This document shows positions 3,935 through 45,926 of a DNA stretch of 64,000 bases, in pieces (within the stretch, counting starts at the first letter, position 1; each line of letters opens with the position of its first letter). Origin of the DNA: Candidatus Freyarchaeum deiterrae (lineage in GTDB: Archaea; Asgardarchaeota; Jordiarchaeia; Jordiarchaeales; Jordiarchaeaceae); assembly GCA_037305845.1 (NCBI GenBank), contig CP147778.1:2240001-2304000 (forward strand), given 5' to 3'. Both the position numbers and the translations under genes were made by a program. The notes under the pieces are model-generated. The model did no database searches. It was not told the DNA's origin and worked only from the letters and a program-made list of their open reading frames with translations.

Positions 3935-4656
3935 TTGGCAAAAGATAATTTTTTGACAGAAAAGAAAAAACTTTTAGAGAACCTGAAGCGCACCGGCTTT
4001 GTTACCAGAGAAAACGTAATGCAAGCGTTCCTCAGAGTTCCCCGAGAAGAATTCGTGCCAGAGAACCTCAGAGACAAAGCTTACGTTGACCACCCCCTAC
4101 CAATTCCAGGCGGTCAAACAATATCTGCGCCACGCGAAAAAGCATATCCCTGCTTTTCGGGCGAAACATGTGCGTTCTAATGTGCGACGTACTAGAATTG
4201 GAAAAGGGCATGAAAGTACTAGAAGTAGGCGGAGGTTCAGGTTATCACGCAGCGCTATGCGCTGAGATAATAGCACCCACAGGTTCCAAAAGCGAGGGCC
4301 ATGTCTACACCATAGAACGAATACCCGCGCTAGTCGATTTTGCCAACGAAAATCTGAAAAAAACTGGATACATTGACAGAGTAACCATCTACACAGGAGA
4401 CGGCTCGGAGGGATTCCCCGATATGGCTCCCTATGACGCCATACTTGTGACAGCTGCAGCGCCCAAGGTGCCCCAACCACTCATTGACCAATTAGCCGTG
4501 GGAGGAAAATTAGCCATTCCTCTCGGGAGCCTTTTCATGTATCAGGAATTGATAGTAGTTGAAAAATTAGAGGGCGGTCAGACGAAGAGGCACAGGTTCG
4601 GTGGTGTGGCCTTCGTTCCGCTATTGGGTCGTTGGGGGTATCGTAATAGTTGGTAA
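3935..4656 (+). CDS. pcm: Protein-L-isoaspartate O-methyltransferase, spliced: join(3935..4133,4166..4656), 229 aa
   Basis: The N-half (VPREEFVP..AYVDHPLPI..GQTISAP) and C-half (VLEVGGGSGYHAA, GDGSEG, APYDAILVTAA, FVPL) are in different frames. Removing 4134-4165 yields GQTISAPHM. Confidence 0.92.
4134..4165 (+). other. 32-nt BHB intron in pcm mRNA
   Basis: Central helix CGCC(4128-31)/GGCG(4160-63), bulges AC|G and AA|A, intron stem CGAAAAAGCA/TGCTTTTCG, exon pairs TG/CA. Confidence 0.88.
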
Positions 4657-4760
4657 GGTTTTTTGAGGTTCGTAAATGTAATTTATGCTGACCTGCGGAT
4701 ACGGTTATTGAGGATTCTAGTTTCGATTCTTTCTTCAATGTTTATTGATTCTAGTAGATA

Positions 4761-5789
4761 CTATGATTTGAAGAATTGTTCTAGGCGTGATTGGGCTTTT
4801 GTTCTGTCTTCTTCTCGTATGCGTTCCATCGCGTTTTGAACTCGGTCTCTGGAGAAGTCGTGGTCGTCGCAGAGTATTGAATACACTTGATTTCTGTCGA
4901 TGGGTTCCCATCTTATTTTGTAATTGTCAGTTGTTTTGGGTTTTAGGAATAGTTGTTTTATTTCTTCTACTGGGGGTTCTATTTCTAGTTTTCCTTCTTC
5001 TACCACCCTTTCGATGCTTTGTTTTTCCTTTATGAGTCTTATTGCGGTTTTCACTCCTATTCCCTTTACTCCTTCATTGTAATCGGTGCCCAGTAGGATG
5101 CCTATTCCTATAAGTTGTTCACGGGATATGCCGAGGTTCTCTAGATTCTCATCCAGCGATACTAGTTCGGGCTCTACTTTCACATAGGCGTCTTTTTTGG
5201 GTATTTTTCTTCTTCCTGATATTGTGAGATTTCGCACGAGGTTGGGCGAATTAAAAAGTAAAGAATCGTAGTCCTGGCTGGCGACCCCCCACGCGTCTCC
5301 ACGGCGTGCCATGTAGGAGGCTTGAGCTTCTCCCTCTGAAGGAGCCTGAACGTGTGGTACACCCATGGCTGCTAAGAGTCTCTTGCTCTCCTCAACCATT
5401 TCATCAGTTAATCTCGTGGAGGACTGGGCAAATTTTCTCGCTTCCTCCATATCTCCTTTCTCTAATGCTTCTTCCCACTTTTTGGAGGCTTCATTCCTAA
5501 TCTTTCTCCGCTCCTCAACAGTACCAGATTTCAGCTCAGGCGGCTCACCATCAAATACGTAAACCGGTTTTATCCCAGCTTCCAGTAAGTTAATCGTTCT
5601 GTAAAAAACACCACTGAGGTGAGAAGTTATATCACCCTTCCTGTCCATGAGGCTGGTGCCATCAGGCTGCCTAATTATAGACAAAAACTGGTAAAGTGTA
5701 TTCATAGCATCCACAGCAATTACGCGTCCCGAAAGATCCTTCAAACCTACCTGCTGAAAAGAAAGCAAATCCCTCAGATTCACTCCCAT
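4761..5789 (-). CDS. fen: Flap endonuclease 1
   Basis: MGVNL, DAMNTLYQFL, VFDG, APSEGEAQA, SQDYD, GTDYN and C-terminal PIP box QSRLEQFF. Confidence 0.97.
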   Translation of the reverse strand: MGVNLRDLLSFQQVGLKDLSGRVIAVDAMNTLYQFLSIIRQPDGTSLMDRKGDITSHLSGVFYRTINLLEAGIKPVYVFDGEPPELKSGTVEERRKIRNEASKKWEEALEKGDMEEARKFAQSSTRLTDEMVEESKRLLAAMGVPHVQAPSEGEAQASYMARRGDAWGVASQDYDSLLFNSPNLVRNLTISGRRKIPKKDAYVKVEPELVSLDENLENLGISREQLIGIGILLGTDYNEGVKGIGVKTAIRLIKEKQSIERVVEEGKLEIEPPVEEIKQLFLKPKTTDNYKIRWEPIDRNQVYSILCDDHDFSRDRVQNAMERIREEDRTKAQSRLEQFFKS

Positions 5790-5991
5790 AACCAAGCACC
5801 CAAACCAAACTCAATCCGTTCTCGAGAACAAAATAAACTTTAATAAATATACTTTCAGTTTTCATACTTAATCTTTATTCTCAAAATCAAAACATTTTAC
5901 AAAAAAATGGAAACTTAGTATAATTTAATTAAAAAATTAGAAAAAGTTGGAATCATTCCTGCTTGAATTAATTCCTTGGAAAGTTACTGTT

Positions 5992-6255
5992 CTAATCTTC
6001 TCCAATCGCGAGAAACTCTTGTCCAGGTCTGATTAGTTCAATTCTCCTCTTGGTTTTTGTTATTCTGGAAACATGGATAAGTCCCTCAATCTCAAGAGCC
6101 ATTAAAACCTCGTTGAGCTCCGATTCAGAAATCGTCATACCATCGTTGTCCAGACTAGTATTTAACTCATCATCCAAAACTATTCCCTGGCGCTTCATCA
6201 GAATATTAACTACCATATTCTTCAAAGGCGTTGTGTTCCACAGACTGTTACGCAA
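5992..6255 (-). CDS. Small winged-helix protein (conserved archaeal type)
   Basis: SELNEVLMALEIEGLIHV helix-wing pattern; GGAGG SD before the TTG start. Confidence 0.7.
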   Translation of the reverse strand: MRNSLWNTTPLKNMVVNILMKRQGIVLDDELNTSLDNDGMTISESELNEVLMALEIEGLIHVSRITKTKRRIELIRPGQEFLAIGED

Positions 6256-6358
6256 AAAGAATCCTCCTGAAAACTAATCACTGACTTGTTTAAATCGGTT
6301 ATAAAAAATTACATGTTAAATAAAACAGCTTGCACATTAAAACCTTTCTACACATAAT

Positions 6359-6429
6359 ACACTTCAATTTTGAGAATCTACCAGAGACCATGATGCCCAA
6401 AGGCGTTAGACACTCAAATTTTGAGAATC
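6359..6429. repeat. Two ~20-bp imperfect direct repeats with a palindromic core (CTCAAATTTTGAG), possible operator
   Basis: ACACTTCAATTTTGAGAATC (6359-6378) and ACACTCAAATTTTGAGAATC (6410-6429). Confidence 0.45.
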
Positions 6430-6540
6430 CTCAACCCATTTTTATCAAAAATAGCACTTGATATCGAAAGAATCTGTGATAACTATACTATACCTTAAAC
6501 TCCCAAAAGAATAATTTAAAAACGGCTTACAATGGATTAG

Positions 6541-6741
6541 CAAGAAAGCTCCAGTCCCTTTAGGGCGGGGATGAATTGCGGGGAGTTTAAATATCCAAAA
6601 AAGAGGAAAGAAAATAATAGGGCTTGCTCACCCGAAGAAGGTGCGGAAGCCGTTAACAGGGCGGTGACACGCCCCACACTTCTAACAACAATAACATAGA
6701 AGTGTAGAACCCCCAACCTTTCAAGGAGAGGAGTATGTCAG
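6541..6741 (+). mobile_element. Non-autonomous IS200/IS605-type mini-element (left end + omegaRNA-like right end, no ORF)
   Basis: TTAG followed by CAAGAAAGCTCCAGTCCCTTTAGGGCGGGGATGAATTG (LE-like hairpin); internal GGGGCG-GTGACA-CGCCCC hairpin; RE-like GAACCCCCAACCTTTCAAGGAGAGGAGTATGTCAG. Confidence 0.65.
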
Positions 6742-6781
6742 ATCAACACACAACAAAAAATGGAAAAAATAGGATGATTCC

Positions 6782-9055
<2,274 letters not shown>

Positions 9056-9289
9056 TTATTAGGTTTAAAAATATTGCTTTATTAACATGCATATTACTAA
9101 TAATTTTTTCTCTTAATGCTCTATGCATGCTTTCTTTGCTTTACTTATCTTTAATTGTTAATCACTTTTTGAAACAGCAGTGTCTAAATTAAAATAGTGA
9201 AAAGGAGTATATAAATCTAAATTAGAATTATTAATAAGCTTTCAATGACGTCGAATTCAATCCGTTAGGAGATTTATTGTAGGTTTTTC

Positions 9290-9976
9290 TTATTTTGCCC
9301 CGCCGGTTTTCTGCCACATGGGTTTCTCACTTATGTGTAGTGTTGTTTGGGGTTTAACAATAACTATTCCTTCGGGGGTTGTCTTCACTACTCCAAAGAG
9401 GATGACTCTACTTAAAACTCTGATACGAACTACGTCCCCCTGTGTTACAGGGTATCCTACCAGTTTTCTTTTTACGAAGCGTTCGAAGCGTTCTTCTACA
9501 GGGAACCTTACGCTGACAGGAGCTAAGATGACCGATTCGGCTTGTTTTTCGCTGGCTTTCTTAATTACCACCTTATCCCCTAGGCTTACGTTAGCGTTGT
9601 GCCTCAGGTATTCGTCCATCCGGACTAGTCCCTTGTCTTTGTCTTCAGGGTAGGCTGGCCAAGCAATGGCGGATGTAGCCTTTTCACCCTTTATTTCAAC
9701 GACGTCATCTTTTTGGACGCCTAGTTTTTCCATTGCGGCGTTATCTACTCGTACTATGAATCTTCCGGCGTCGCGCTTCTGCGCTTCTTCTACACGCAGT
9801 TCGATAATAGTCTCTTTCCCCTTCTCAAAAAATGCTTCTTCCGAAGAGATGCTTTCGTCATATACGTAATTTGGGTCAATCGGCTTGCCGCAATGTGGAC
9901 AGAATACGGCACCACTTGGAACTTGGGTGCCACAGTAAGAGCACCACCCCTTTTTGGAAATATTTCTTCCACTCAT
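9290..9976 (-). CDS. Zinc-ribbon (CSYC..CPHC) fused to a CDC48 N-domain copy; no ATPase domain
   Basis: Nt 9320-9805 is a colinear 486-bp paralog of cdc48 nt 8468-8953; intact ORF with its own ATG. Confidence 0.85.
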   Translation of the reverse strand: MSGRNISKKGWCSYCGTQVPSGAVFCPHCGKPIDPNYVYDESISSEEAFFEKGKETIIELRVEEAQKRDAGRFIVRVDNAAMEKLGVQKDDVVEIKGEKATSAIAWPAYPEDKDKGLVRMDEYLRHNANVSLGDKVVIKKASEKQAESVILAPVSVRFPVEERFERFVKRKLVGYPVTQGDVVRIRVLSRVILFGVVKTTPEGIVIVKPQTTLHISEKPMWQKTGGAK

Positions 9977-10106
9977 CTTATAACCCTCTACTACAAGTAG
10001 TACCCCCTTCTTTTAATTATTCTTTTTAATAAATGCAAAAACGCCGAATCCAATCCGTCAGGTAATTTGGTGGTGGGGGAGTTTCTTATCTTGTCTTGGA
10101 TTATAT

Positions 10107-10373
10107 CTATACTCGTCTGACCATTTCCATTTCTATGTTGCTTACTCCTTCTATTCCTGAGATTGCTTCTTCAATGTAATCTGTTCCTCCCTCGGCTTCG
10201 GGAACCAGTACATTGAGTCTTAAAGCCTTTAGGCCGAATGCTATTGGGACCTCTTCTGAGCTGGCTATCTTTGATCCCTTCGGGAGTTTCCTCTCTATTG
10301 CGGCCTTTAATTCATTTAAATCAACTTCCGTTGATTCCGGATATATTTTCACGGTTGCTACAACTTTTGCCAA
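10107..10373 (-). CDS. ef1b: Translation elongation factor aEF-1beta
   Basis: KIYPES.EVDL, EEVPIAFGLKAL and GGTD motifs. Confidence 0.93.
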   Translation of the reverse strand: MAKVVATVKIYPESTEVDLNELKAAIERKLPKGSKIASSEEVPIAFGLKALRLNVLVPEAEGGTDYIEEAISGIEGVSNIEMEMVRRV

Positions 10374-10396
10374 ATTCTGCACCTCTTAAACAATTT

Positions 10397-10573
10397 TTAG
10401 GGGCCTTCAAAATTGCATACGGGACATTTGTACATGTTTGAAAATTCTCTGCACCTCTGACAACGCCAGATCATGTGTTTGTTGCAACTCGGGCAGGAAA
10501 ATCTCACTGCACCTTTTTCGGGCGACACTACTTTGCCACAGCTTGCGCACAGTTGCGGTTTGATTTCAGTCAT
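10397..10573 (-). CDS. Small Zn-ribbon protein (DUF1610/HVO_2753-like), 58 aa, missed by the ORF track
   Basis: MTEIKPQLCASCGK...FSCPSC...IWRCQRCR...YKCPVCNFEGP; usual position upstream of EF-1beta. Confidence 0.9.
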   Translation of the reverse strand: MTEIKPQLCASCGKVVSPEKGAVRFSCPSCNKHMIWRCQRCREFSNMYKCPVCNFEGP

Positions 10574-10697
10574 GTTAGTTATCCTCCATCGCTAAATTTT
10601 TCGCTGCTCCACTTAAGATTTGGAAAGCTTTTAAATATTTGTTATTTCTGATTTAATAAATCTTCTATTTTTGCGTAATCTTGAACCATTTTTATTT

Positions 10698-11924
10698 TTA
10701 TTTTTTGGGTTCTTCTTTTTTTCCTATTATGAATGTTTCCAACAAGTTGAGGAGAACGCTGGCGGAAAGTTTGGGTTTAAAAACTAGTTTCTTAATCACC
10801 CCTGACTCAAAGTCCATGTCTCCTACTTCCTCTATGACTTCAGGAAAATCGTTTTTAATAATGGTTTTAAAAAGTTTATCCAGATTCCTATCGCTCATTC
10901 TGTTTAGAAGTCGTCTTGCCAGGCGCATTAAGTAAAATTCTCTGGAGAGTAATCTTCTCCATTCTTTTTGATAAGCACTCAGTCTTCCACTATTTACGTT
11001 TCCTTCAATAACAGCCTCTGCAGCAACTTCGCCAGCAACTTGAGCACACAGCCCACCCATTACCACACCTCCACCTGTTGTCGGTTTTACTTGACCAGCA
11101 GCGTCACCTACCACTAGAAAGCCATCGCTGTAAGTCTTTGGAATCGGCCCGCTTAGGATAATGCTACCTCCAAATTGTTTTATGGGCACCGCATCTGAGA
11201 GTCTTTTGGAAGCGATGGGATGGTTTTTAATAAATTCTCTTAGATACCTCAGGGCATGGTGATGCGCACCAACACCTATCCTTGCAGTATTCTCTCCCGT
11301 AGGAATTATCCAAGCAAAAAATCCAGGAGCCAGTTTGTTTCCGAAGAACATTTCCACTTGGTCTGGGTTAATCTGTGCATTATTCACTTCAATTTGAACT
11401 CCGGGTATAACTCCTCCTGAAACGGGGATTAATCCCATCTCTCGAACAAATTTTCCTCTTACTCCCTCTGCGTCGATAATGACCTGAGCATCGAAAAATG
11501 ATTCTTTTCCATGAAAAACCTTCAGCGTTTTCTTTTCACCACTTTTTAGAGATACGACTTTCGATTTGGGAAATAATGTCACATTTCCCTTTTGTGCCTC
11601 AGAGGCGAAGTACTGGTCAAGTCGGGGGCGGTCAATAACGTAGGCTTGAGGTTTCTTGCGCGAAACACTAAAAAAAGCACCAGAAGGAGAATAGAACGTA
11701 GCCCCCTTAACCCTATTCAGAATACAATCTGCGGGAACATTTACATTCAGTCTTCTTAATCCGGATACGCTTATCAGGCCCGCACAGTGTTGGGGCAACC
11801 CAACAGAGGGATGTTCCTCAAATAAAGCAATACTAACTCCCTTTCTAGCAGCGTTTCTGGCAGCTATAGCCCCGGAGGGCCCACAACCAATGACCGCAAT
11901 ATCAAAATCTTTCCTTTCAGAAAT
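10698..11924 (-). CDS. Geranylgeranyl reductase family flavoprotein
   Basis: The frame extends upstream of the called ORF through the FAD motif DIAVIGCGPSG; GDAAGQVKPTTGGG present. The only plausible start is ATT at 11924. Confidence 0.88.
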   Translation of the reverse strand: MSERKDFDIAVIGCGPSGAIAARNAARKGVSIALFEEHPSVGLPQHCAGLISVSGLRRLNVNVPADCILNRVKGATFYSPSGAFFSVSRKKPQAYVIDRPRLDQYFASEAQKGNVTLFPKSKVVSLKSGEKKTLKVFHGKESFFDAQVIIDAEGVRGKFVREMGLIPVSGGVIPGVQIEVNNAQINPDQVEMFFGNKLAPGFFAWIIPTGENTARIGVGAHHHALRYLREFIKNHPIASKRLSDAVPIKQFGGSIILSGPIPKTYSDGFLVVGDAAGQVKPTTGGGVVMGGLCAQVAGEVAAEAVIEGNVNSGRLSAYQKEWRRLLSREFYLMRLARRLLNRMSDRNLDKLFKTIIKNDFPEVIEEVGDMDFESGVIKKLVFKPKLSASVLLNLLETFIIGKKEEPKK

Positions 11925-12165
11925 ATTTCATCCCGCCTGTTGAGTCTTTTTGGTTGAAAAATGATTTAAGCTTAGTTACTTTTAAGGGTTACAAGAAAAT
12001 CCTTTAAATATAATTCATACAAACTGGAAAAGAAGCAAATGACGCCTTTTCAACAGTTTCGAAATAAGTAGGCTTAAATAGTCACATAAGAAATCCGTGT
12101 TGAAGGCTGCGGAATCAGCAAGGCCAATCGTTTTAAAGAAAGGAGAAGCTGAGGAGAAAAATAGG

Positions 12166-13407
12166 ATGATAAAAACCTACACCGTTCCCCACAACCTCCA
12201 GCTGGACCAATTCTTCTACGCCTACCTCACAGCTCTAAACAGCATGATCGGCGACATCTGGAAAAGCATCCAGTGGAAAGAAAAAACAATCAGGGGGAAA
12301 AAGCAGAAGCGGATACTGCCCACCATCCCCAACTACGCCTTCAAGAAGGAGATGAGAGACCAGTACCTAATGGACTGGGAGTACGCCAGGCACTGGATAG
12401 ACTCCGCCATAAAAACCGCGTTCTCCATAATAAACTCCTGGAAGAAAAACTACGTAAAGGGAAACCGCAAGAGGAAAAAACCAGTCGTCAAACGATGCTT
12501 CGTGAGAGTTAAACAAACACTGATGAAAATCAGCGGAGAAAAGCTACGCATCACCATCAAGCCAAGAGAATACGCAACCATCGATTTGTCGAAACGCTAC
12601 TTCAGCATAAAAGGAAGAAGAATAGGGGAGCCCATACTAACCCCCACCAAACTCCATTTACCCATAGAAACCAACCACGCGGAACAACAACAAGAGAAGC
12701 CCGCCGAGCGGATCGGTTGGGACTCCAACAAGCTCTCAGTGGACGGCTTCTCCCCCACCCACGGCTGGATAAAAATCGACCTAAAACCGCTGCACACCCT
12801 CCACACAACCTACGACAACAAGATGCGCAACATAAACCGAGTGTACTCAAAAAACCGGGGAAAGGGAAAAAAGCTCTACCAAAAATATGGGAAGCGGTGC
12901 CGGAACCGGGTGAAAAACTACCTACACCATGTCGCCAAGCGGATAACATCTTCCCACTTCCAGCAGGCACTGCACGGATTTGAAAAACTGGAAAAGCAGC
13001 GCATGAAAAAAGGGCACAAGCACCGGTGGAACCGGGAGCTGAACCACGCGGATTGGCGTCTGCTCGTTTCCCTGGCCCGAAACCGGGCACCAGTTGTCGA
13101 AGTCAGCCCCTTTTACACCTCGAAAACCTGCAGCAGATGCGGGGAAGTCCACAAAGCCCTAAGGAGCGAAAAGGTTTTCGAGTGCCCATTCTGCGGACTG
13201 ATTGTAGATCGACAGCTGAACGCCAGCATAAACATCTACCTAAGAATGAGAGGAGTTTCCCCGCGAAGGGAGTGGTTCGACGCCACATTCATCGCGGGTG
13301 GGTTTCCCTTGATCGGGGTGGAGACGAAGATTCCCGATGAACTCGCGAGGGAATTATATGACTCAATGAAACCCCAATACTACGTAAGTCTACCTCTGAC
13401 TACGTAG
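12166..13407 (+). mobile_element. tnpB: Solo TnpB (IS200/IS605/IS607 OrfB-type), no tnpA adjacent
   Basis: RuvC-I IGWDSN, RuvC-II FEKL, YTSKTCSRCG..CPFCG Zn finger, DRQLNASINI; base composition differs from the flanks. Confidence 0.88.
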
Positions 13408-13478
13408 TATAAAACCCTAGAAAATATTCAAATGTAATAAACCGGCTTCGTTCCTCTTCGCTCAGGAGTCGCTCAGGC

Positions 13479-17713: not shown

Positions 17714-18178
17714 AGTTGTTACCTCTTTTGCGTTTTTAGATTTAGTGTATCATTGGTTGTTGGCGTACTTACGGCGAGACATAATAAAAAGTTTTTGGTA
17801 AAAAGTAATACAAATTTTCATAACTTGGATAAATCACTTTTTCAACATTTTAAGTTTTAGAAGTCTTCACTTTGCGGGTTTAATACCCTGAAATTTATAA
17901 TTTGAATGATATAATAACAAACCGTAATTATCTCGGAAAACAAGCTCTAGAGTTAAAACTTGGACTATATCCTTCTTCCCTAAGTGTAGAACATTCCCAA
18001 GGTTTTTTCAAGTTAAAGCTTCTAAAATTCTAAAATTTTTGTCAGGTTTATAACTAACTAATTGGATGTGTTGGTGTCCACGTAGATGTATTTTTATATG
18101 GCAATTAAATATAACACTTTATAACGGCGTCGAATATGATAGATGCTTTCTTTATTCGACAACTGGGAATGGTTAAAA

Positions 18179-20224
18179 ATGATTAAAGCATACTATGTTC
18201 TTCTAAAAACTGGTGAGTCGCTTTTTCACAGAGTTTACGGTGGAAATCATGTTGACGAGTCGTTGTTCTCAGGGTTCTTAGGAGCTGTTTACACCTTTGC
18301 TCGGGAAATTGGACATGGAGATATTCAAACAATGGAGATGGGAGATGCAAAGGTTATATGCGAGGTTTCCGGTAATCTGATTTTCGTGGTCGTCGTTGAA
18401 AAAGATGATGATGAGCAAGAAATAAAAAATTTTCTCAGCTCTACCTCAAAAACTTTTGTTAACCGCTTTAGAAGCGAGATCGAGGGATGGCAGGGGAATG
18501 TAACTGTTTTCCGACCATTCGAGAAAGACCTAGATCACATAGCGGAAAACTATAATATGAAACGTCTTCCAGGCAAAGTTAAATTAGCACCCTTCCTTAG
18601 AGAGGATACTAGCGACTCCTCCGCTTGTCCCTTTGATGTAGAAATCGCCTCCGTCTTCTCGTTACTGGAAGATGTAAGAAACCGTGGCGGAGGTATCCTC
18701 AGAAAAAAGCCGGAGGAAGAATTAACCGGTATTATAAAAGTCTTATGGCCCTTTTGGATATTGCCCTATAAAGACGGAGACAATATCATTTTCGTGGATG
18801 CCATGAGTGCAGACTCTCTTAGAGTAAAAATTAAACATTCCCAAGCTATGGAGAATATTAAGAGCTTGCTTGAAATAAAGGATGCTGACACGTTTGTAAC
18901 CGCTTTTGAAAAACTACTGTTAGACTCAAAAAATGAGAAGTTAGAAGAACTTTCCCTATATGGCCTTTTGGACCCAGAACTGGTAAAAGATATGGAAATT
19001 AGTTTGTCCAAAGCGAAGCAGAGTGAGACCAAAGAATACGTTGTCCCCCGTCCACTCATAAATCCAAAACGAGCACTTGAGAGTAAAAATGTTTTCAGCG
19101 CACTTTTTGAGGAATTAAATAAACATTATCAAAAACTGGTAGAAAACGATAATTCGATCACATTAACCGCTGAAAAGTGGCTAAAGAAAATAAATGAAAA
19201 AGCTGTAAAGATTAAAGATATGTATCAGGTTAAAATAGTGGAAACCACCGAAGACGTTCAGAAGCAGATTGAAGATCTGCGGCAGCTTAGGGAAGAAGAA
19301 CTAAGAAATATTGATACTTGGTTAACGGAAGAGGACAAGAATCTGGTATTGGAAATAAAAAACCTATTCGGGCCTCTTTTAGAAGTTTTAGAAGACGTAG
19401 CACTGAAATCTACCGAAGTAATAGAAAAAAGTGTAGACCCTCAAAGCAGCATGTTAAAGCTCATAGAGGGGCGTATTGAAAAATTCGCTACTGTTTCCGA
19501 GTATATGGATAAGACTAAGAAAGTTGTTGAAAATATTTCTCATAGCATAAAGAAAATAGACACCACAATCGAAAAAACAACCAAAAAAACAGAAGCAGAT
19601 AAGAATCTCGTAATACAAAATTTTGACAAAAAAATTTGGGAGCAGGAATCCCGGATTGATAAGTTGAAAGAAGAAATAGAATCTGCTCTAAATGTGCAAC
19701 AGGAATTAATGAACAAAGTCACAACCACACTCAAAGATTTAAAAGAGTTATTTAAAATTAAATGTGGAGAAATAGAAGAGCAAATAAAAAGGTTAAACTC
19801 ACAGATAATAAAGTCACCAGAAAAAACATATTCCCCTACACTTTTTTACATACCTCTCTACCTTTCAAAATTCCAAGACCTGAAAAAAGAGCGGTTCTAT
19901 GTGGTGCCCCAATTACTTCTTTTAATATCAAGAGCTCCGATTTGTGACTTTGGACAGAAAACACTTCCCCTAGACCTACCAACCTCCCTGCTCTTTGAAA
20001 CGCTAAAAGAAAAGGTTGAAAACCTAGCTACTGAGAATAAAGAATTAAGAACTGAAATTGAAAAAGGTTTCAATAAGAAAAATCTCATAAATTCACCGCA
20101 GATTGAAAAAAGTATCTATGACGGCTTGGACAATCTCTTGCGTTTGAATATTCTAAATGAAAATAACTTTCATATACTTAAGGGTAGAGTCGCTGAAATT
20201 TTTAGAAAGGAGCAAAAAGCATAG
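18179..20224 (+). CDS. N-terminal longin-like domain plus long coiled coil (Asgard eukaryotic-signature type)
   Basis: YYVLLKTGESLFHR..LFSGFLGAVYTFAREI..F..RF....W.G....F..F longin pattern; heptad-rich middle region. Confidence 0.72.
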   Translation: MIKAYYVLLKTGESLFHRVYGGNHVDESLFSGFLGAVYTFAREIGHGDIQTMEMGDAKVICEVSGNLIFVVVVEKDDDEQEIKNFLSSTSKTFVNRFRSEIEGWQGNVTVFRPFEKDLDHIAENYNMKRLPGKVKLAPFLREDTSDSSACPFDVEIASVFSLLEDVRNRGGGILRKKPEEELTGIIKVLWPFWILPYKDGDNIIFVDAMSADSLRVKIKHSQAMENIKSLLEIKDADTFVTAFEKLLLDSKNEKLEELSLYGLLDPELVKDMEISLSKAKQSETKEYVVPRPLINPKRALESKNVFSALFEELNKHYQKLVENDNSITLTAEKWLKKINEKAVKIKDMYQVKIVETTEDVQKQIEDLRQLREEELRNIDTWLTEEDKNLVLEIKNLFGPLLEVLEDVALKSTEVIEKSVDPQSSMLKLIEGRIEKFATVSEYMDKTKKVVENISHSIKKIDTTIEKTTKKTEADKNLVIQNFDKKIWEQESRIDKLKEEIESALNVQQELMNKVTTTLKDLKELFKIKCGEIEEQIKRLNSQIIKSPEKTYSPTLFYIPLYLSKFQDLKKERFYVVPQLLLLISRAPICDFGQKTLPLDLPTSLLFETLKEKVENLATENKELRTEIEKGFNKKNLINSPQIEKSIYDGLDNLLRLNILNENNFHILKGRVAEIFRKEQKA

Positions 20225-31447: not shown

Positions 31448-32086
31448 CTACTTTTCTTTCTCCTTGGGTTTCTTGGAAGTATCTAACTCTTTTTTCAGGT
31501 CTTCTAGTTCAGATGCTAGCGATGATTTCTCCGCTATTGTATCGGTTTGTGGTACCTTGGGTTCTTCAACCCCTTCCAGGGCGATCTCCGCCTCAAGGCG
31601 GTTGAGTTCACGGTCAACATCTCCGGTTTCCTCTACACCCATTTCCGTGGGCGTTGCCAAAATCTCTGAGCTTCTCTCAATCTCGTGCATGTCTTCTTCT
31701 TGCTTGATCATCATTTCGAGTATCTCTTCTGAGTTAGCTAGTTTTCGCGCATTATCAAGTTCTACTCCTGCTAGTTGAAATGCGCCTTTGAGCTCTGAGA
31801 CATCATGAGCTTCCTCAATGGCAATCAGCCTAGTCTCAAGATTCTCTATGAACGCCGTGTACTTGCCCAGGAAGTTCTCGTATCTTCTATATTTTCTAAG
31901 AGAAAAGGTAGCCATATTCCTGTTACCCATTTTTAGGTACTGTTTCGCTTTAGTCCTCTCTTCAATCGCTTTTCTCTCATAGTTACGTGAACGCAAAGTT
32001 AGCCTGTTGATATTACCCCTTAGCGATGCGATTATCTCATCCTTGTCCTTTGGCCTTTTTCCAAAAAGTATATCCTTAAAGCTCAT
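31448..32086 (-). CDS. ESCRT-III Snf7/Vps20/32/60-like subunit
   Basis: LFGK N-terminus, AKQYLKMGNR..A...LRK, NLETRLIAIEEA, acidic C-terminus DVDRELNRLEAE. Confidence 0.85.
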   Translation of the reverse strand: MSFKDILFGKRPKDKDEIIASLRGNINRLTLRSRNYERKAIEERTKAKQYLKMGNRNMATFSLRKYRRYENFLGKYTAFIENLETRLIAIEEAHDVSELKGAFQLAGVELDNARKLANSEEILEMMIKQEEDMHEIERSSEILATPTEMGVEETGDVDRELNRLEAEIALEGVEEPKVPQTDTIAEKSSLASELEDLKKELDTSKKPKEKEK

Positions 32087-36946: not shown

Positions 36947-37078
36947 ACAAAACACCAATCCCTTTTTTGATATTTTTCTAATTCTTTATTTTACCTAATA
37001 GAAGATTCCAGATGGTAGCATATAATACTTTCTTAATGTGCATTCCTCTGTTTTAAAAAGCAGTGAAAATTAAGCCGT

Positions 37079-37681: not shown

Positions 37682-37688
37682 AAGATTT

Positions 37689-38651
37689 TCACCCAAAAGC
37701 AATTATTGCCTCGTAAATCATTTGAACTGATATGAGGATTAGGACTAGACCAAAAATTTTTCTAAGAAGGTTGGGCGATATCCTCATCGCTATTCTAACG
37801 CCTATCTGAGCTCCAATTACCGCTCCAATCATCATAACAATGCCGATTTGCCAATTCACTTGTCCTAACATAACATGCTCGAAGGATCCAACTAATGACG
37901 TAAAAATAATTATGAACACCGAAGTAGCCACTGAGACAATCATGGGAACCCCGAGAGCAATATTCAATACCGGCACCTGAACAATTCCTCCCCCTATTCC
38001 TAATAGCCCAGATACAAGTCCCGCCACAAAAGAGAACGCTAAACCCAAAGGTACATTCACAAAGTACTCATAGCTTTCACCGTTTGCCACTTTAATCGTT
38101 CGTTTCCAACTCAGAATACCTCTCTTTATTATTTTCTTCTCTTCTTTAACGGCTTCCTGAGGACTATTCGGATTAGATCTTCTCCCACCACTTCTAAAAA
38201 GCATATTAATTCCAACTACAACAAGCGCCACCCCAAAAATTGCTTCGAGTATATTTCCTGGAACCCATCCGGTCAAATACGCTCCAAGGAAGCCACCGGG
38301 AACAGATGCTACTGCTAGCACCAAACCCAATTTATAATCTATAACTCTTTTACGAGCATATTCAACGGTACCAGAAGACGAAGTGAATACGATAATGAAT
38401 AAACTGGTTCCTATAGCCACATTTATTGGCTCATTTGCTACATACTGAATTGCTGGAACATTTAGAAATCCACCCCCAATACCAAACATGGGCCCAATTA
38501 TCCCAGTAAAAAAAGATGTTCCACCCAGCAGTGGATAAAGCCACCAGTTACTACCACTATTGAGAAGGAGGTACAAAAGCCACCAATCCAAGTTATCATA
38601 CTCCAAATAATTGAACCAACTAAGAGGAACCAGTATAAAACAATTTCTCAC
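37689..38651 (-). CDS. TauE/SafE (TSUP) family membrane protein
   Basis: Duplicated G..GIGGG...VP and A.GTSL/ATS motifs; multiple TM segments. Confidence 0.9.
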   Translation of the reverse strand: MRNCFILVPLSWFNYLEYDNLDWWLLYLLLNSGSNWWLYPLLGGTSFFTGIIGPMFGIGGGFLNVPAIQYVANEPINVAIGTSLFIIVFTSSSGTVEYARKRVIDYKLGLVLAVASVPGGFLGAYLTGWVPGNILEAIFGVALVVVGINMLFRSGGRRSNPNSPQEAVKEEKKIIKRGILSWKRTIKVANGESYEYFVNVPLGLAFSFVAGLVSGLLGIGGGIVQVPVLNIALGVPMIVSVATSVFIIIFTSLVGSFEHVMLGQVNWQIGIVMMIGAVIGAQIGVRIAMRISPNLLRKIFGLVLILISVQMIYEAIIAFG

Positions 38652-38819
38652 CTACTGTTTATGTAAAATATATCCGTAAAAACCCTCCCTAAAAACTGAA
38701 CGTTCTCCAAAAACATAATTTGGCTACAAGTAACTTTATTATGTGAGAGATAAGAATAAATAGTTCGTTTAGTTTTACTTGTCTAGATTCAAAATAAATG
38801 AATTAGTGAAGTGAGTATT

Positions 38820-39129
38820 TTGCCGCAAAAACGTAAAAGTCGTGGAAGAGCCAAAGGAAGCGCTGGAAAGAAATCACTCGTCCAATGCTCCGGGTGTGGG
38901 GCCATGGTGCCTCGCGATGTCAATTTGCTCAATTGAGCAAGTACGCGATAAGGCTAAGCGTGTGACCCGATACACCACATTGGTTGATCCAATGATCGGT
39001 CGAGAATTAAGACAGCAGGGAGCATACATTCCAAGAACTAGAGAAATCAAGGTATACTGCATCAACTGTGCTGTTCACAGAAAATTGACTCGGGTAAGAC
39101 CAAAGGAAGATAGAAGAGACAGAAGATAA
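38820..39129 (+). CDS. rps26e: Ribosomal protein eS26, spliced: join(38820..38918,38950..39129), 92 aa
   Basis: Exon 1 MPQKRKSRGRAKG..VQCSGCGAMVPRD plus exon 2 KAKRVT...YCINCAVHRK..RVR give a complete eS26 with all four Zn cysteines. Confidence 0.93.
38919..38949 (+). other. 31-nt BHB intron in rps26e mRNA
   Basis: Exon helix GCCT/AGGC, central helix CGCG/CGCG, bulges AT|G and AT|A, internal palindrome TTGCTCAATTGAGCAA; in-frame TGA within the intron. Confidence 0.9.
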
Positions 39130-39183
39130 ACAAGAAAATGTCGCTCTTAGGTAAAACCGGTTAACCCATTAAGGGGAGAGGCT

Positions 39184-40074
39184 TTGCTTAACCTAGTGGT
39201 TATTGGGCATATTGCAAAGGATACAATAATTCGAAATGGCTCCAAAACCTACTCGATTGGCGGGCCTCCTTTTTATGCTGGAATAGCTGCGAGAAAAATG
39301 GGGGGAAAAGTGGGTATAGTTTCTAAAATAGGCCGAGACTTGGATGACGCGTCTTTGTCCGTTTTTAAAGAAACGGGAATTCAAACATCTATAAAAAAAA
39401 CAAATGGTTTGACAACAAACTTCGAACTCGAGTACCTGCCTGAAGGCAGAAGATTAAAATTGAAAGAGAGATGCGAGCCTATCTTATTTGAAGACGTTCC
39501 CAAACACTTTTTACGAGCGGGCTCTCTACTCGTCAGCCCTATAGCAGGAGAAATTTCAACGGATTTTATGGAAAAAATCTCTCGAAAAACAGATTCCATA
39601 TTAGCCATTGACGCACAGGGCTTTGTTCGCAAGTTTGATGACCAAGGAAATGTGTATTTTGATGTTTGGAGGGAAGGCGAAGACATTCTTCCTCTTGTGG
39701 ATATTGCCAAATTTTCAAAACGTGAAGCACTAACCGCTATGGACTGCGATAGCATTCATGACGCTGCCCAAAAAATTTTGAATTTTGGCCCAGAAATCGT
39801 TATAATAACGCTTGGTGAGGAGGGAGTTCTGATAAGAGGAAAGGAAAACCTTTCCATCACTCCCAAGACTACCCCTGAAAAAGTAATAGACACTACCGGC
39901 GCAGGAGACATATTCTTCGGAGTATTTCTTCTTGAATATTCCCTGACAAAAAACGTAAAAACTTCTGGAAATATAGCGACCATCGCAGCCTCAAAATCTA
40001 CTGAGGGAAAGGGGATGTCACGGTTTATAACAAGAGATATGATTGAAAATGATTCATTCCAAAATGTAGACTAG
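39184..40074 (+). CDS. PfkB family carbohydrate/nucleoside kinase
   Basis: GGPPFYAG, IDAQGFVR, ITLGEEG, DTTGAGD. Confidence 0.9.
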   Translation: MLNLVVIGHIAKDTIIRNGSKTYSIGGPPFYAGIAARKMGGKVGIVSKIGRDLDDASLSVFKETGIQTSIKKTNGLTTNFELEYLPEGRRLKLKERCEPILFEDVPKHFLRAGSLLVSPIAGEISTDFMEKISRKTDSILAIDAQGFVRKFDDQGNVYFDVWREGEDILPLVDIAKFSKREALTAMDCDSIHDAAQKILNFGPEIVIITLGEEGVLIRGKENLSITPKTTPEKVIDTTGAGDIFFGVFLLEYSLTKNVKTSGNIATIAASKSTEGKGMSRFITRDMIENDSFQNVD

Positions 40075-40173
40075 AATTTTAATAGAAAAAAATTAGGGGA
40101 CTCCTATTCAATAAATTCAAGGAAAGGTTAATCGAATAATAAATGATTTTTAATTGCTGCTTTAGATGAGTCC

Positions 40174-41301
40174 TTATTCTACGGGTTGTATCTTGCCTAA
40201 TATTCCAAAAGCGGGGCATCCTGGAATAAAGATTCCCTTATCCTTATGTTCCTGTGTGCAGTCTCCTATGATGTACGTTCTACCCTCTAGTTTTTCTGGT
40301 ACTTTTGCATCCTGCCCTATTACCATATTAATTTTTCCCACTTTTTCTATGAGTCCATGTTTTCTAAGCCTATCCAGCTCTACTCTGGCCCAAGCCAAGC
40401 AACCTTCATTACACGCGCATCCAACGTAAACCTCTACGTTCGGATAAATGCCCATTACATCCGTTGATGGTCTCTTAAAATTCCTCCGGACTTCACTAAT
40501 ACTCGCTCCTCTTACTTCTATTTTATTCAAGTCCATTTCTCCCAGTCTCCGAAGGGCAGCCAGTCTTATATGAGGAATTTCACCAGGCTCAAAGCCCATG
40601 ATACTTGACGCTACAGCATCTACAGATACCACATCTGTTCCCGCAATAACCAGACCCATATCCAATGCATCTCCGTAGGTAGGTCCCTGTCCCTCAAACG
40701 CGATTAGACCGTCAATTATTGCTAGGGCGGGTTTTGCCGCTAGCGTTACGTCCACAACCTTCTGGTGGATATCCGTCCTGTGATAAATCTGTTTTTCTTC
40801 AGGGGTTAATAGACCGATCTGATTTTTAATCGCTAAGCTGACTCTGCACATGGTATGAGTTTTTAATTTTGGCACTGTTATGAACTTGTTGCAATCCAGT
40901 AGAACTTTTGGGAGTTTAATGGTGTTCATTAATTTTGCCTTGGGGGACTCTATCTCTAGATATTCCTCCTCGTCCAAGTAAACAGCCTCAGCGCCCTCCT
41001 CTTCCACTACCGTTTGCGTTCCTGTAACTTCGAAAGCTTTTCTGGACTTGTAAAAGAAGAAGGGAGCATCTCCAACTTTTATCTGGCTAGCTCCCGCCTC
41101 TCTCACCAGTTGAATCACCGCCCTAACTACTTCTGGGTCAGTGGTTGCACCGGATTCTTTGGCAAGGGGAACAACCAGGTTTGGTTTTATGAAAACCTTG
41201 TCTCCTTTTCTCACAATTTTTTTGATTCCGCCTATGAGGTCTACCGCATTTCGAACAGCATCTGCTGCTGTTTCACTCTTTACAATTGACACTACTGGCA
41301 T
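40174..41301 (-). CDS. DUF362 family protein (Fe-S associated)
   Basis: IKPNLV, ATTDPEVV, VPKLKTH, IKN..G, EGQGP, D.VSVD. Confidence 0.85.
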   Translation of the reverse strand: MPVVSIVKSETAADAVRNAVDLIGGIKKIVRKGDKVFIKPNLVVPLAKESGATTDPEVVRAVIQLVREAGASQIKVGDAPFFFYKSRKAFEVTGTQTVVEEEGAEAVYLDEEEYLEIESPKAKLMNTIKLPKVLLDCNKFITVPKLKTHTMCRVSLAIKNQIGLLTPEEKQIYHRTDIHQKVVDVTLAAKPALAIIDGLIAFEGQGPTYGDALDMGLVIAGTDVVSVDAVASSIMGFEPGEIPHIRLAALRRLGEMDLNKIEVRGASISEVRRNFKRPSTDVMGIYPNVEVYVGCACNEGCLAWARVELDRLRKHGLIEKVGKINMVIGQDAKVPEKLEGRTYIIGDCTQEHKDKGIFIPGCPAFGILGKIQPVE

Positions 41302-41577
41302 GGAGTTTCCCTCTAATTGTAGCTAATATATTACAAAGGGAAAACACTTAAAAAAAATTCGGTAAAAAGTCCCATTATATAATCCATTTTAATGGCGATG
41401 GAAAATAAAAATTTATATTAAACCCCAATGATTTAACTCCAACAAAAAGAAAGAGCTTAACAAGCGCTCATCAAATATTTAATTTATCAATTCAAAGCCC
41501 ATTTAGTTTATGTTGAATACTCTAAGCAAAAGATGTATTTTAAGTTGCAAAACTACTGAGTTTTAGCTGGTGATTGA

Positions 41578-43032
41578 ATGGTTGAAGATACTGAAACTCC
41601 CTTACCCGACAAGGAACAAAACTTCAGTGAATGGTATAACGAAATCGTCCAGAGGGCGGAGCTAGTAGATCTTCGCTACGGAGTGAAAGGATTTATAGTT
41701 TATCGCCCTAATATTTCAACTATCTTGAGGCAAACTTATCGCCTTTTCGAGGAAGCTCTAGATGCATATGGTCATTCAGTTTGCAACTTTCCAGTAGTAA
41801 TACCCTTGGAATTCTTTCAAAAAGAAGCTGACCACATAAAAGGATTTTCGGGAGAAGTTTTTTGGATAACAAAGGCAGGCGGTAGTGACCTCGATAAACC
41901 TATGTTACTGAGACCAACTTCTGAGACCGCTATGTATCCCCTTTACGCCTACTGGGTTCGAAGCTATCGCGATTTACCTTTGAAATTATACCAAAGCAAC
42001 ACCGTCTACCGATATGAAACCAAGGCAACAAAAGCTCTCATTCGGGGCAGAGAATTCTACTGGATAGAAGCGCACGATGTTCATAGAACGCCTGAAAACG
42101 CAATAAACCAAGTAAAAGAGGATATGGAAATAACGATTAACTCCCTACACGATCAGCTTGGTATTCCCTTTCTATTGATGGAAAGGCCTCCATGGGATAG
42201 GTTTGCAGGAGCAGACCAAACTTACGCCTTTGACGTACTTCTTCCCGATAAGAATGTCCTACAAATTGCCACCACTCACCTCCTAGGTGAGAATTTCTCT
42301 AAAGCCTTCGAGATTATGTTTGAGGATGAGGATGGAGTCAAAAAGTATGGTCAACAGACATGCTTTGGAATAGGCATCTCAAGAATAGTAGCTACCATTA
42401 TCAGTATGCATGGCGACAATTACGGACTAGTACTACCATTTCACGTCGCTCCCCTCCAAATCATAATAGTACCAATACCCAAAAAGGGAAAGAATGAACT
42501 CATAACTGAGAAGTGTGAGGAAGTTTACCAAAGACTCAAAGATAAAGGTTATCGAGTAAAATTTGATAACTCAGATGAACGCCCCGGAGCCAAATTTTAT
42601 CACTGGGAACTACTGGGTGTACCATTAAGACTCGAAATAGGTCCTAAAGACATAGAGCAAGGTGCGATAACTATTTTTAGAAGAGATAAAAGGGAACGCT
42701 TTCTGACAAAAGAAAGCCAACTAGTAGAAACTATCGAACAGCTGAGGGATGATATCTTAAAAGAATTAAGAACCCATAGAGAAAAAGACTTGGAAGAGGA
42801 CACCCGAGAAGCCAAAAGTAAAGAGGAATTTCTAGAAATCGCGAAAAACAAAGGGGGCTTTATAAAGATAGAGTTCTGTGATAACGTTAAGTGCGCGGAA
42901 ATAATTAAAGAAGAAACCGGAGGATACGAGGTAAGAGGCAAACTCTTTGGAGAAAAAGAAAAACCAAAGGGTAAATGCATAATCTGCGGCGAAAAAGCAA
43001 AATCAATAGTTTACGCAGCCAAGCCTTATTAA
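41578..43032 (+). CDS. proS: Prolyl-tRNA synthetase (archaeal/eukaryotic type)
   Basis: FSEWY, LRPTSETAMY, YRYETK, REFYW.EAH, QTCFGIG; C-terminal Zn domain ending AKPY. Confidence 0.96.
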   Translation: MVEDTETPLPDKEQNFSEWYNEIVQRAELVDLRYGVKGFIVYRPNISTILRQTYRLFEEALDAYGHSVCNFPVVIPLEFFQKEADHIKGFSGEVFWITKAGGSDLDKPMLLRPTSETAMYPLYAYWVRSYRDLPLKLYQSNTVYRYETKATKALIRGREFYWIEAHDVHRTPENAINQVKEDMEITINSLHDQLGIPFLLMERPPWDRFAGADQTYAFDVLLPDKNVLQIATTHLLGENFSKAFEIMFEDEDGVKKYGQQTCFGIGISRIVATIISMHGDNYGLVLPFHVAPLQIIIVPIPKKGKNELITEKCEEVYQRLKDKGYRVKFDNSDERPGAKFYHWELLGVPLRLEIGPKDIEQGAITIFRRDKRERFLTKESQLVETIEQLRDDILKELRTHREKDLEEDTREAKSKEEFLEIAKNKGGFIKIEFCDNVKCAEIIKEETGGYEVRGKLFGEKEKPKGKCIICGEKAKSIVYAAKPY

Positions 43033-43131
43033 AAACTATCTTCAAATAGAAATCCTTAAAAAAGATTATTCCCTTAGAAAGGTCTTCCCTATTTTCCATT
43101 TTGTAAATTACCTGAAAGTTTCCAAACAAGA

Positions 43132-44403
43132 GTGATTATGTTGAAAGATTTACAGATCCCTTACGGCAAAAAAGAAATCAGATTTAACCTACCAAACAAC
43201 TGGAATCTGCTAGGCGTTCTCTCACCAAAGATAACCAACAAGCAACTTGATCCTTACAAGGCGGTACTGAAAGCGGTGAGAAATCCAATAGGAACCGAAA
43301 GCCTGTATGATATAGCACACAGAAAAAGGAATGCAGTAATCCTCTCAGATGATAAAGCACGCCCTACCCCCTCAAACCTTATTATTCCTCCATTACTGGA
43401 CGAGTTAAATCGGGCTGGTATTCCCGATGGTAAAATTACTATTATCATAGGAAGGGGATTGCACGAATCTCTGAATGAAAAAGAACTTGAAAAGAAGCTA
43501 GGTGAGAATGTCTTAGAACGGGTTGCTGTCATTGATCATGAACCAGATAAAGATTTAATTAACGTTGGAAAAACTCCTCAAAACGTGCAGGTATTCATTA
43601 ATAAAAACGTTGTTGAGGCGGACCTAAAGATAGGTATAGGCAGCCTTACACCTCACGAATTATCTGGATTCACAGGAGGCGCAGGAATCGTTGTACCTGG
43701 CGTGGCTGGAAGGCGAACCATTAATCAAAACCATTCTCTTGTTAAAAGGTTCAAGGCAGAATTCGGAAAAATTGAAGGAAATCTCATACGCAAAGATATG
43801 GAAGACGCAGCCAAGTTGCTTGGATTAGACTTTTTGGTAAATGCTACTCTGGACGTTAACGATCAGATAGTAGATATATTTGCAGGAGATGTGGTTAAGG
43901 CTTCCCATGAAGCGGTTGAAAGTGCTAAGAACATTTACGGTGTGCACATCGATAAAAAGGCAGACGTAGTGATAGCCAGTTCTCATCCAAAAGATGATAC
44001 TTTCGGCAAATCAATGAAAGCCATTTTCGCTTCTTCACTGGCAGTCAAACCAGACGGCGTTATAATACATGTAGCGCCCTGCTGGGACGGGCTGTCGCAC
44101 AGTGAAATTTTCGAGAAAATGTTACTAGACAATCCTGGACTAGAAACATTATTCAAGATATTGGATAGAGGACAACTTCCTGGAGAAAGCTGTGTACTCT
44201 ACCTGTTTGCTTTAGTTAAAAATAAACTTAGAATCATAGTAGTTACCGACGGAATAGAAAAAGAGGTCGTAGAAAAAATGGGTTTAGAATACGCTGAAAA
44301 CATAGAAACCGCCTTAAAAAACACTGGAAAAGAAAAAGCGGATTGTACCGTGCTGCCCTGGGGCGCTGTCTCATTACCTATTCTAAATAATTCGAGTGAG
44401 TAA
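43132..44403 (+). CDS. larA: Nickel-pincer-dependent lactate racemase family protein (LarA-like)
   Basis: NPIG, D..RPTP, GRGLH, PHELSGFTGG, PGVAG. Confidence 0.85.
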   Translation: MIMLKDLQIPYGKKEIRFNLPNNWNLLGVLSPKITNKQLDPYKAVLKAVRNPIGTESLYDIAHRKRNAVILSDDKARPTPSNLIIPPLLDELNRAGIPDGKITIIIGRGLHESLNEKELEKKLGENVLERVAVIDHEPDKDLINVGKTPQNVQVFINKNVVEADLKIGIGSLTPHELSGFTGGAGIVVPGVAGRRTINQNHSLVKRFKAEFGKIEGNLIRKDMEDAAKLLGLDFLVNATLDVNDQIVDIFAGDVVKASHEAVESAKNIYGVHIDKKADVVIASSHPKDDTFGKSMKAIFASSLAVKPDGVIIHVAPCWDGLSHSEIFEKMLLDNPGLETLFKILDRGQLPGESCVLYLFALVKNKLRIIVVTDGIEKEVVEKMGLEYAENIETALKNTGKEKADCTVLPWGAVSLPILNNSSE

Positions 44404-44598
44404 TGTCCATTTTACATGTTTCAAAACTTATTCTATTCCCCTTTTCCTATATTTTCTTTTAAATTTCATTGGTATTTTTTATTAATTTCGAAACAAAATC
44501 TAAGTTTTATTATCCATCTCTTTTAAAAGCAAATATGTAACACTAAAATTAGTGAAATAATAGAATGGATAATATTGCATAAAGTGGAGGCTTTGTAA

Positions 44599-45926
44599 TT
44601 GCGCTTTTTTTCGGACTTGCACATACATAGCAAGTATAGTAGGGCCACCAGTGATAAAATGGATATTGAGAATTTGATAAAGCATGCCAAGGTTAAGGGA
44701 CTAAACCTGCTAAGTTCTGGAGACCTATCTCATCCAAAATGGTTATCCGAGTTGAAAAACAAACTGATAGAGATCGAGGATTCGGGATTTTTCAGGGCTG
44801 AGGGCGAAAATGATGTTTTCTTTGTTCTTTGCACCGAAGTGTCAACTGTCTTTAGACATGAAGGAACTTCAAAGAAGATTCATCATCTTTTGTTTGCTCC
44901 TAATTTCGAAGTAGCTGATAAAATGAACGAATTTTTAGCGAAATTCGGGAATCTGAAAGCAGACGGTAGACCAATGTTGAATATTACCCCCGCAGAACTC
45001 GTTGAGAATCTTATAAATATTGATGAAAGAATATTAATCGTTCCTGCACATTTATGGACCAGTTGGTTTGGTGCATTAGGTGAAAATGGTTTCGACAGTT
45101 TAGAAGACTGTTACGAAGATCAGCTAAAGCACATCTACTCTGTGGAAACAGGTTTATCCTCTGACCCGGCTATGAACTGGAGACTGAGCAAATTGGACAA
45201 ATACGTTTTAATGAGTAACAGCGACGCTCACAGCCCATGGGATTGGAGGCTTGGTAGGGAAGCAAACGTTTACGAACTAAAATCTCCATCCTACCGAGAA
45301 TTAACCGAGGCTATAAAAACAAAAGACAGGGAAAAAATTCTTATGACCATCGAAGTTGACCCCGCCTATGGAAACTAATTCGAAGTGAGTCCGAGTTAGC
45401 CATAAAATATCACTTCGATGGTCACCGCGCAGATAAACATCAAAGCGGTACGGACGTATACATGTCTCCAAAAGAGGCTATTAAAATAAGTAACATTTGT
45501 CCAATCTGTAGAAAGAAAATGACTATCGGAGTGCTACACAGAGTAGAAGAATTAGCTGATCGAGATGAAAATTATTTACCCAAAAATTATGTACCCTTCA
45601 AAAGATTAATTCCTTTGACAGAACTCATTGCGGCTGCTATGAGGATTGATGACTTGTACTCTAAGCAGATTTGGGAGATGTACTACCGACTTGTGAATTC
45701 TTTCGGTAACGAGTACAATATTTTAATTAATGTTCCCAAACCCGATATTGAGGCGGTGGTGGATCAGAAAATTGCTGATTTAATTATCAATAACCGAGAA
45801 GGAAGACTAAAGATTAGACCAGGTTTCGATGGGGTGTATGGAAAAGTTGTTTTAGACGAAAAAGAAGCTAAAGGTAAAGGCTTTAAACAGCTGGAGCAGA
45901 AAAGTCTGGATGGATATTTTAAATAA
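44599..45926 (+). CDS. endoQ: EndoQ-family PHP-domain endonuclease, spliced: join(44599..45373,45406..45926), 431 aa
   Basis: DLHIHSKYSRATS, PAHLWT.WF, ETGLSSDP, SNSDAHSP, GREAN; restored PAYGKYHFDGHR; CPIC..GVLHRVEELADR, PGFDGVYG, PIP-like QKSLDGYF. Confidence 0.9.
45374..45405 (+). other. 32-nt BHB/BHL intron in endoQ mRNA
   Basis: Central helix ATGG(45368-71)/CCAT(45400-03), bulges AA|A and AA|A, intron stem CTAATTCG/CGAGTTAG; in-frame TAA within the intron. Confidence 0.86.

Follow-up and report, generated by a model that had tools for sequence, protein, structure and literature searches.

Candidate bulge-helix-bulge introns in three protein-coding genes of the Asgard archaeon Candidatus Freyarchaeum deiterrae

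Three conserved genes in a 64,000-nucleotide stretch of the genome of Candidatus Freyarchaeum deiterrae (contig CP147778.1, positions 2,240,001 to 2,304,000; hereafter the window, whose numbering is used unless genome positions are indicated) are interrupted by short inserts that break the reading frame. Are these inserts pre-mRNA introns of the bulge-helix-bulge (BHB) type, which are removed by the tRNA splicing endonuclease EndA? The genes are pcm, encoding protein-L-isoaspartate O-methyltransferase, rps26e, encoding ribosomal protein eS26, and an endoQ-like gene of the TIGR00375 family (here endoQ). The window lies on one contig of 3,576,204 bp, and the inserts at 4134–4165 (pcm, 32 nt), 38919–38949 (rps26e, 31 nt) and 45374–45405 (endoQ, 32 nt, with an in-frame TAA) were confirmed, with the same positions and lengths as in a first-pass annotation of this DNA. 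We consider it highly probable that all three are pre-mRNA introns cut by EndA and joined by the ligase RtcB. The transcript would fold into a local BHB motif, a two-subunit EndA would cut after base 2 of each 3-nt bulge, and RtcB would join the exons to give full-length Pcm, eS26 and EndoQ-like protein.

The anatomy of the inserts agrees with the earlier description of a 4-bp helix between two 3-nt bulges. Each of them has such a central helix, with a 3-nt bulge on both sides and an inner hairpin, and the helix is Watson-Crick paired at 4/4 positions in pcm (CGCC/GGCG), rps26e (CGCG/CGCG) and endoQ (ATGG/CCAT), while the outer helices comprise 1–4 bp. The chance of an equally strong helix is about 5e-5 per random cut pair, and the local fold compared with shuffled sequences gave z = -2.0 (pcm), -3.2 (rps26e) and -4.0 (endoQ). 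Applying the BHB cut yields open frames of 229 (pcm), 92 (rps26e) and 431 (endoQ) amino acid residues, and the two halves of the profile matches abut at the junctions (PRK13942, 5–63 and 65–214; PRK09335, 1–33 and 34–91; TIGR00375, 3–236 and 250–374). To avoid circularity, the deletion that aligns best with Odin-type orthologues was sought without use of the motif, and the BHB cut was among the top-scoring placements for all three genes. Thus, the claim that the cut restores the frame and the family consensus holds, whereas the addition that no adjustment is needed is fully informative for pcm only, where the placement is unique, compared with 7 equivalent placements in rps26e and 4 in endoQ. 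Comparison of the three inserts found no sequence in common, as had been noted before. The inserts are just 31–32 nt long, and neither group I/II introns nor other known structured RNAs fit them. All three genes are single-copy, without an intact paralogue, and a search for a fourth intron within the window found none.

In pcm, exon 1 (3935–4133, plus strand; PCMT residues 2–59 of 210) ends after base 1 of the His codon in the motif ISAPHM, and exon 2 (4166–4656, plus strand) covers PCMT residues 61–208; database records give exon 2 by itself, as a protein of 158–162 residues. An insert of 25–32 nt is present at the identical base in 10/10 genomes of the same order, in four genomes from three further Asgard families and in one contig of the Joint Genome Institute (JGI), and it is absent from 15 other Asgard loci. 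Among these 16 instances, 94.6% of the cells are paired, 9 of the 14 pairs show a compensatory change and 0 of 500 shuffles scored as high; neither shuffles nor slides approached the observed pairing, although the statistic is inflated by the relatedness of the sequences. In the central helix, a change from G-C to A-U tracks a synonymous change in the exon. Comparison of exon 1 with congeners gave nonsynonymous (pN) and synonymous (pS) divergences of 0.06–0.08 and 0.73–0.85, respectively, and pN is far below pS in both exons of pcm and of endoQ, which indicates purifying selection. Judged from its shared site, the predicted pcm intron is old.

The endoQ insert separates exon 1 (44599–45373, plus strand) from exon 2 (45406–45926, plus strand) and occurs at the identical base in 11/11 genomes of the same order, with a length of 24–29 nt in the other 10, while it is absent from all 14 loci of other classes that were inspected. 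For inserts at shared sites in relatives, the arms pair better with their own partner (0.98/0.88) than across species (0.62/0.72). The endoQ orthologue of genome G031 has a second frame break near codon 40–47, with no BHB where it was searched for.

In case of rps26e, exon 1 (38820–38918, plus strand) comprises codons 1–33 from a TTG start and matches PF01283 1–33, and exon 2 occupies 38950–39129 on the same strand. The insert includes a perfect 16-nt palindrome and lies inside a 7-nt duplication, of which the 5' copy CGCGATG (38913–38919) consists of a palindromic half-helix plus bulge and matches the 3' copy CGCGATA (38944–38950) at 6/7 nt. The insert was not found in 29 relatives, 5 congeners among them, and is seen in this species only; no element related to it was found. 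The predicted rps26e intron is young by this distribution, and the three introns, if such they are, differ greatly in age.

The machinery that such introns would need is encoded in the genome, namely two EndA paralogues (one alpha and one beta subunit; the two genes lie near 1.921 and 1.733 Mb of the genome) and one RtcB. EndA alpha keeps the catalytic Tyr, His and Lys residues, and its closest structures are of the Aeropyrum/Sulfolobus type (crenarchaeal). These genes support, at the genomic level, the earlier proposal that the introns would be handled by EndA and RtcB. Two-subunit EndA splices the cbf5 mRNA and tolerates relaxed motifs (PMC10485636, PMC2738675). The cbf5 gene of this genome has a 32-nt BHB insert between bases 1 and 2 of the catalytic Asp codon (genome 1483415–1483446, minus strand), which is the position shown to be spliced in Crenarchaeota (PMC2738675), and either shared ancestry or repeated gain would explain the coincidence. 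Moreover, the DAHQGYGFP motif of rtcB itself is interrupted by a 29-nt insert with a relaxed BHB (genome 1452796–1452824, minus strand), so that the ligase would need itself. One study reports that 92–95% of the tRNA genes here contain introns (PMC11291895), and the finding of just 17 tRNA candidates in this genome by ARAGORN is consistent with this. The assignment to an Asgard host agrees with the labels of the close protein relatives (Freyarchaeota/Jordarchaeia). A gene for Snf7 (ESCRT-III) at 31448–32086 (minus strand) is likewise consistent with an Asgard host.

A locus outside the window, alba, occurs both with and without its insert. A 30-nt BHB insert is present in alba in 6/6 genomes of the genus, and full-length Alba proteins are found in databases. 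In one species, just the 30 nt of the insert are missing from the alba contigs of runs SRR28530378 and SRR28530379 and present in the contig of SRR28530383; these contigs are otherwise identical over 13,157 nt (0 mismatches), and the gap can be placed where the BHB cut would fall. In a second species, exactly the alba intron is missing in SRR28530378 and retained in SRR28530379, with 3 mismatches elsewhere. The same exact deletion for two species in one run is the pattern expected of spliced RNA, which is strong but indirect evidence. An exact search of JGI contigs for the spliced alba junction had no match.

How common are such introns in the genome? In a homology census, about 1 Mb was sampled from four relatives, which covered 549 loci of this genome. 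Nine clear frame-breaking insertions were detected in 7 genes, and a perfect BHB was found at the best cut in 9/9, in addition to an insertion in ppsA with a relaxed BHB. Eight more stop hits all lay at weak alignment edges without the motif, and almost none of about 150 control gaps, which were in-frame and stop-free, had a strong BHB. Without the three genes that had been included on purpose, 5 of 546 loci (~1%) are interrupted, and the mRNA of about 1% of the conserved genes is very probably spliced in this cell. Genome-wide, 18 inserts were checked in 16 genes, the hosts including cbf5, tyrS, gatE and rtcB; inserts in kae1, ychF and RLP were not reproduced at the thresholds used. All 18 lie within one third of the chromosome, at 1.12–2.29 Mb, overlapping the region with most of the detected tRNAs, a clustering that may partly reflect the mode of discovery. 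A few dozen such introns per genome is a fair guess. The first-pass expectation of many introns genome-wide is thereby upheld, whereas the density that it drew from the window was overstated, since the 18 known inserts in 3.58 Mb amount on average to fewer than three per 64 kb. In reciprocal samples, interrupted genes numbered 2/360 in the Odin-type genome G011, 1/139 in G006, 1/116 in G021 and 0/53 in G034. Genome G011 belongs to another Asgard class and has BHB introns in protein genes at L120:18043-18065 and L101:15635-15661, one of them with inner ends CCATAT/ATATGG like those of the mobile element family described below and the other with a duplicated palindromic GTAC.

The suspicion that these genes are systematically mis-annotated is well founded, as all 17 closest relatives of pcm (64–100% identical) are deposited as truncations of 158–167 amino acid residues. 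In addition, most close database entries for Alba have 73–86 residues. In the unspliced alba loci L198 and L260, gene callers read TAG as Gln and produce 118-residue products. Introns that contain a stop codon and have a length of 3n can mimic recoding.

Several observations weigh against the reading of the inserts as pre-mRNA introns. No spliced junction of pcm, rps26e or endoQ was seen in the protein and contig searches, which included an exact search of JGI contigs for the endoQ junction; likewise, protein searches found neither a full-length close Pcm protein nor a spliced copy of the eS26 of this species. The motif is relaxed in four endoQ orthologues (a G-A pair) and in the inner helix of rps26e, which has 1 bp, an internal loop and then 8 bp. 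As for alba, the intron-less contigs cannot be labelled as RNA and span genes on both strands, and the intron is precisely gone from the genomes of G007 and G008, while the sister species G006 and G010 carry it. Furthermore, structure-only and loose structure-plus-coding scans of the genome were swamped by chance matches. A short and strict class in these scans was enriched for frame-restoring matches (6:1 and 7:1 versus about 1:2 expected), and because the enrichment is limited to that class, no ab initio intron count is given.

The alternatives explain the same loci less well. Translational recoding, in which the ribosome would frameshift, hop over or read through the insert in an uncut RNA, might be thought of because a hairpin beside a frame break is a typical recoding signal, and the cbf5 introns were formerly taken for frameshifts (PMC2738675). 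However, the inserts of orthologues at one site have lengths of 0, 1 or 2 modulo 3 (24, 28, 29 and 32 nt in endoQ; 25–32 nt in pcm), so no single fixed frameshift would work; a conserved slippery run is absent, the sequence of the inserts is free while the pairing is retained, and the alba locus occurs without its insert. We regard recoding as very unlikely, and the same holds for the idea that the loci are pseudogenes, or that each is a split gene of which the two halves are produced independently and then assemble. Exon 2 of pcm and of alba does start at ATG, and the databases do hold short proteins. But the first-pass annotation had named intact paralogues together with decay of these copies as evidence against its proposal, and neither was found: no second copy could replace the interrupted genes, eS26 is present in 37 of the 41 Asgard genomes searched, both exons are under purifying selection with breaks inside conserved motifs, the unspliced tails vary by species, and conservation of the BHB would serve no purpose. 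It had also named an assembly artefact, for which one could cite the direct repeat at the borders of the rps26e insert and its occurrence in a single species. The inserts recur in independent assemblies, that of pcm in 15 and that of endoQ in 10 others, and the rps26e insert is identical (4166/4166) in the Logan assembly of SRR15677223, a run that may share the same site of origin. An artefact is extremely improbable.

A further proposal would add to splicing rather than replace it, namely that the introns are regulated switches through which splicing gates expression. HAC1 and XBP1 are mRNAs that undergo non-spliceosomal cutting and ligation, with RtcB as the ligase in animals, and regulation has been shown for them. 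A switch would fit with the truncation of the unspliced forms, the retention of the pcm site in several Asgard families and the insert in rtcB itself. On the other hand, the host genes are functionally unrelated, gains (rps26e, ahcY) and losses (alba) separate close relatives, and rare loss could equally explain the shared site. The on/off switch of the first-pass annotation thus found no support, given the turnover of alba and other introns among close relatives, and we think it improbable. Its link to HAC1/XBP1 found no support either: there the cutting nuclease is IRE1, which has no relationship to EndA and reads stem-loops and not BHB motifs, and the ligase step alone is shared. Compared with these alternatives, we prefer pre-mRNA introns spliced by EndA and RtcB, which would be mostly tolerated passengers, gained and lost over time, and part of a set of at least 18.

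Where could such introns come from? The ahcY gene outside the window (genome 1875701–1877700, minus strand) has three BHB introns of 56, 29 and 191 nt; the 29-nt intron is common to the order, while the congeners checked have empty sites in place of the 56- and 191-nt introns (genome 1.876–1.877 Mb). Two intergenic elements of G005 share 70–73% identity with the 191-nt intron, and the inverted ends of these elements are common to both the 56- and the 191-nt intron. The elements belong to a family of miniature inverted-repeat transposable elements (MITE) without an open reading frame (ORF), of about 185 bp and with the ends CCATATGTTTA, sometimes nested (G001, G003, G004, G005; L243-L258, L275-L330). 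From 18 to 50 such ends occur in 4/5 congeners, with a maximum of about 25 copies in a genome, and the family was not found in G002 or in the other family of the order. Its target duplication measures 7 bp: 23 of 53 end pairs have an exact duplication of this length, and any other length occurs in at most 3. The duplication is perfect for the 56-nt ahcY intron (CCGGAAT on both sides) and decayed (4/7) for the 191-nt intron. No autonomous transposase with MITE-type ends was found in the loci retrieved, the ahcY and MITE loci have no Rfam match, and no coding context was seen for other MITE copies; a second coding copy in G003 proved to be a false match. Judged by these likenesses, the two putative introns of ahcY derive from the MITE. 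The 7 bp of the duplication would be the sum of a half-helix (4 bp) and a bulge (3 nt). If the duplication starts with four self-complementary bases, its two copies would make the central helix, while the inverted ends would form the inner one; by this geometry, the usual BHB cut would take out the element with one copy of the duplication and restore the target. As the element and the duplication supply the splice signal, the insertion can be silent at the protein level.

This route is shown, as far as sequences can show it, for one or two introns. The rps26e insert fits the pattern in being young and in having a palindromic CGCG and a 6/7 duplication, yet it matches no element. For the endoQ insert (ACGG/ACGT in one family) and the pcm insert (both bulges read AC^A in five genomes), the sequences are no more than compatible with a MITE origin. 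Across all 18 introns, a test for MITE remnants was not significant (p = 0.10–0.33), nor was self-pairing of the exon half-helix as a relic of the duplication. Tentatively, one may picture that Asgard archaea routinely splice dozens of mRNAs by EndA and RtcB, with transposons that duplicate 7 bp as the main source of introns: an insertion at a self-pairing tetramer would be instantly spliceable and would later shrink to a hairpin of about 30 nt, while repair of the duplication would perfect the helix; rps26e would be a recent case and pcm and endoQ old ones. This whole picture is possible, but its odds are somewhat short of even. Three other features of the window were observed. The segment 6640–6700, beside the 3' end of cdc48, is one of six near-identical hairpin-containing repeats of about 60 bp genome-wide, possibly a transposon end; a TnpB/Cas12f-like ORF (IS200/IS605 family) lies at 12097–13407; and a 693-residue ORF at 18143–20224 has no Pfam match at E 1e-5.

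Among known systems, the cbf5 intron of Desulfurococcales and Sulfolobales is alike: it is short, has no ORF, interrupts a coding sequence with a BHB motif and is excised by a two-subunit EndA that cuts behind the second bulge base (PMC2738675, PMC10485636). It differs in that here at least 16 unrelated genes of one Asgard genome carry predicted introns, of very different ages, and in that its splicing has been shown by cDNA (PMC2738675; PMC10485636), whereas that of the window genes is predicted. The intron in the 5' untranslated region of HVO_1309 of Haloferax volcanii is also a BHB intron of an mRNA cut by EndA, but it lies outside the coding sequence, is a single case and is processed by a homodimeric enzyme (PMC7714728). 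These two are the spliced archaeal mRNAs listed in reviews (PMC10485636); introns in other genes were 'predicted'. The non-canonical tRNA introns of Freyarchaeia and Atabeyarchaeia occur in the same lineages as the introns described here, have the same motif and size class and were likewise gained repeatedly; they differ in that their hosts are tRNAs, and term searches of the two papers found no passage on mRNA introns (PMC11291895; bioRxiv 10.64898/2026.10.13.758758). The latter leaves the arrival route of BHB introns open after tests on annotated mobile elements and calls it the central open problem (bioRxiv 10.64898/2026.10.13.758758). The open literature yielded no report of mRNA introns in multiple genes of Asgard archaea, most subscription papers being outside the search. 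The ahcY introns of 56 and 191 nt resemble introners, in which an element with terminal inverted repeats and its target duplication supply the splice signal; introners are eukaryotic and spliceosomal (PMC12130899), whereas here the signal would be a structure read by EndA.

If the prediction is true, these relatives of eukaryotes would splice mRNA as a routine step that needs no spliceosome, with at least 16 interrupted genes in one genome, including those for a ribosomal protein, tyrS, gatE and rtcB. The protein sets of Asgard archaea would then be systematically truncated in databases, which would affect inferences on gene content and metabolism. The geometry of the MITE offers a concrete and testable route for the arrival of BHB introns, and should transposons prove to be their main source, archaea would have a counterpart of introners that works without a spliceosome, and the question of how BHB introns are born would be answered.

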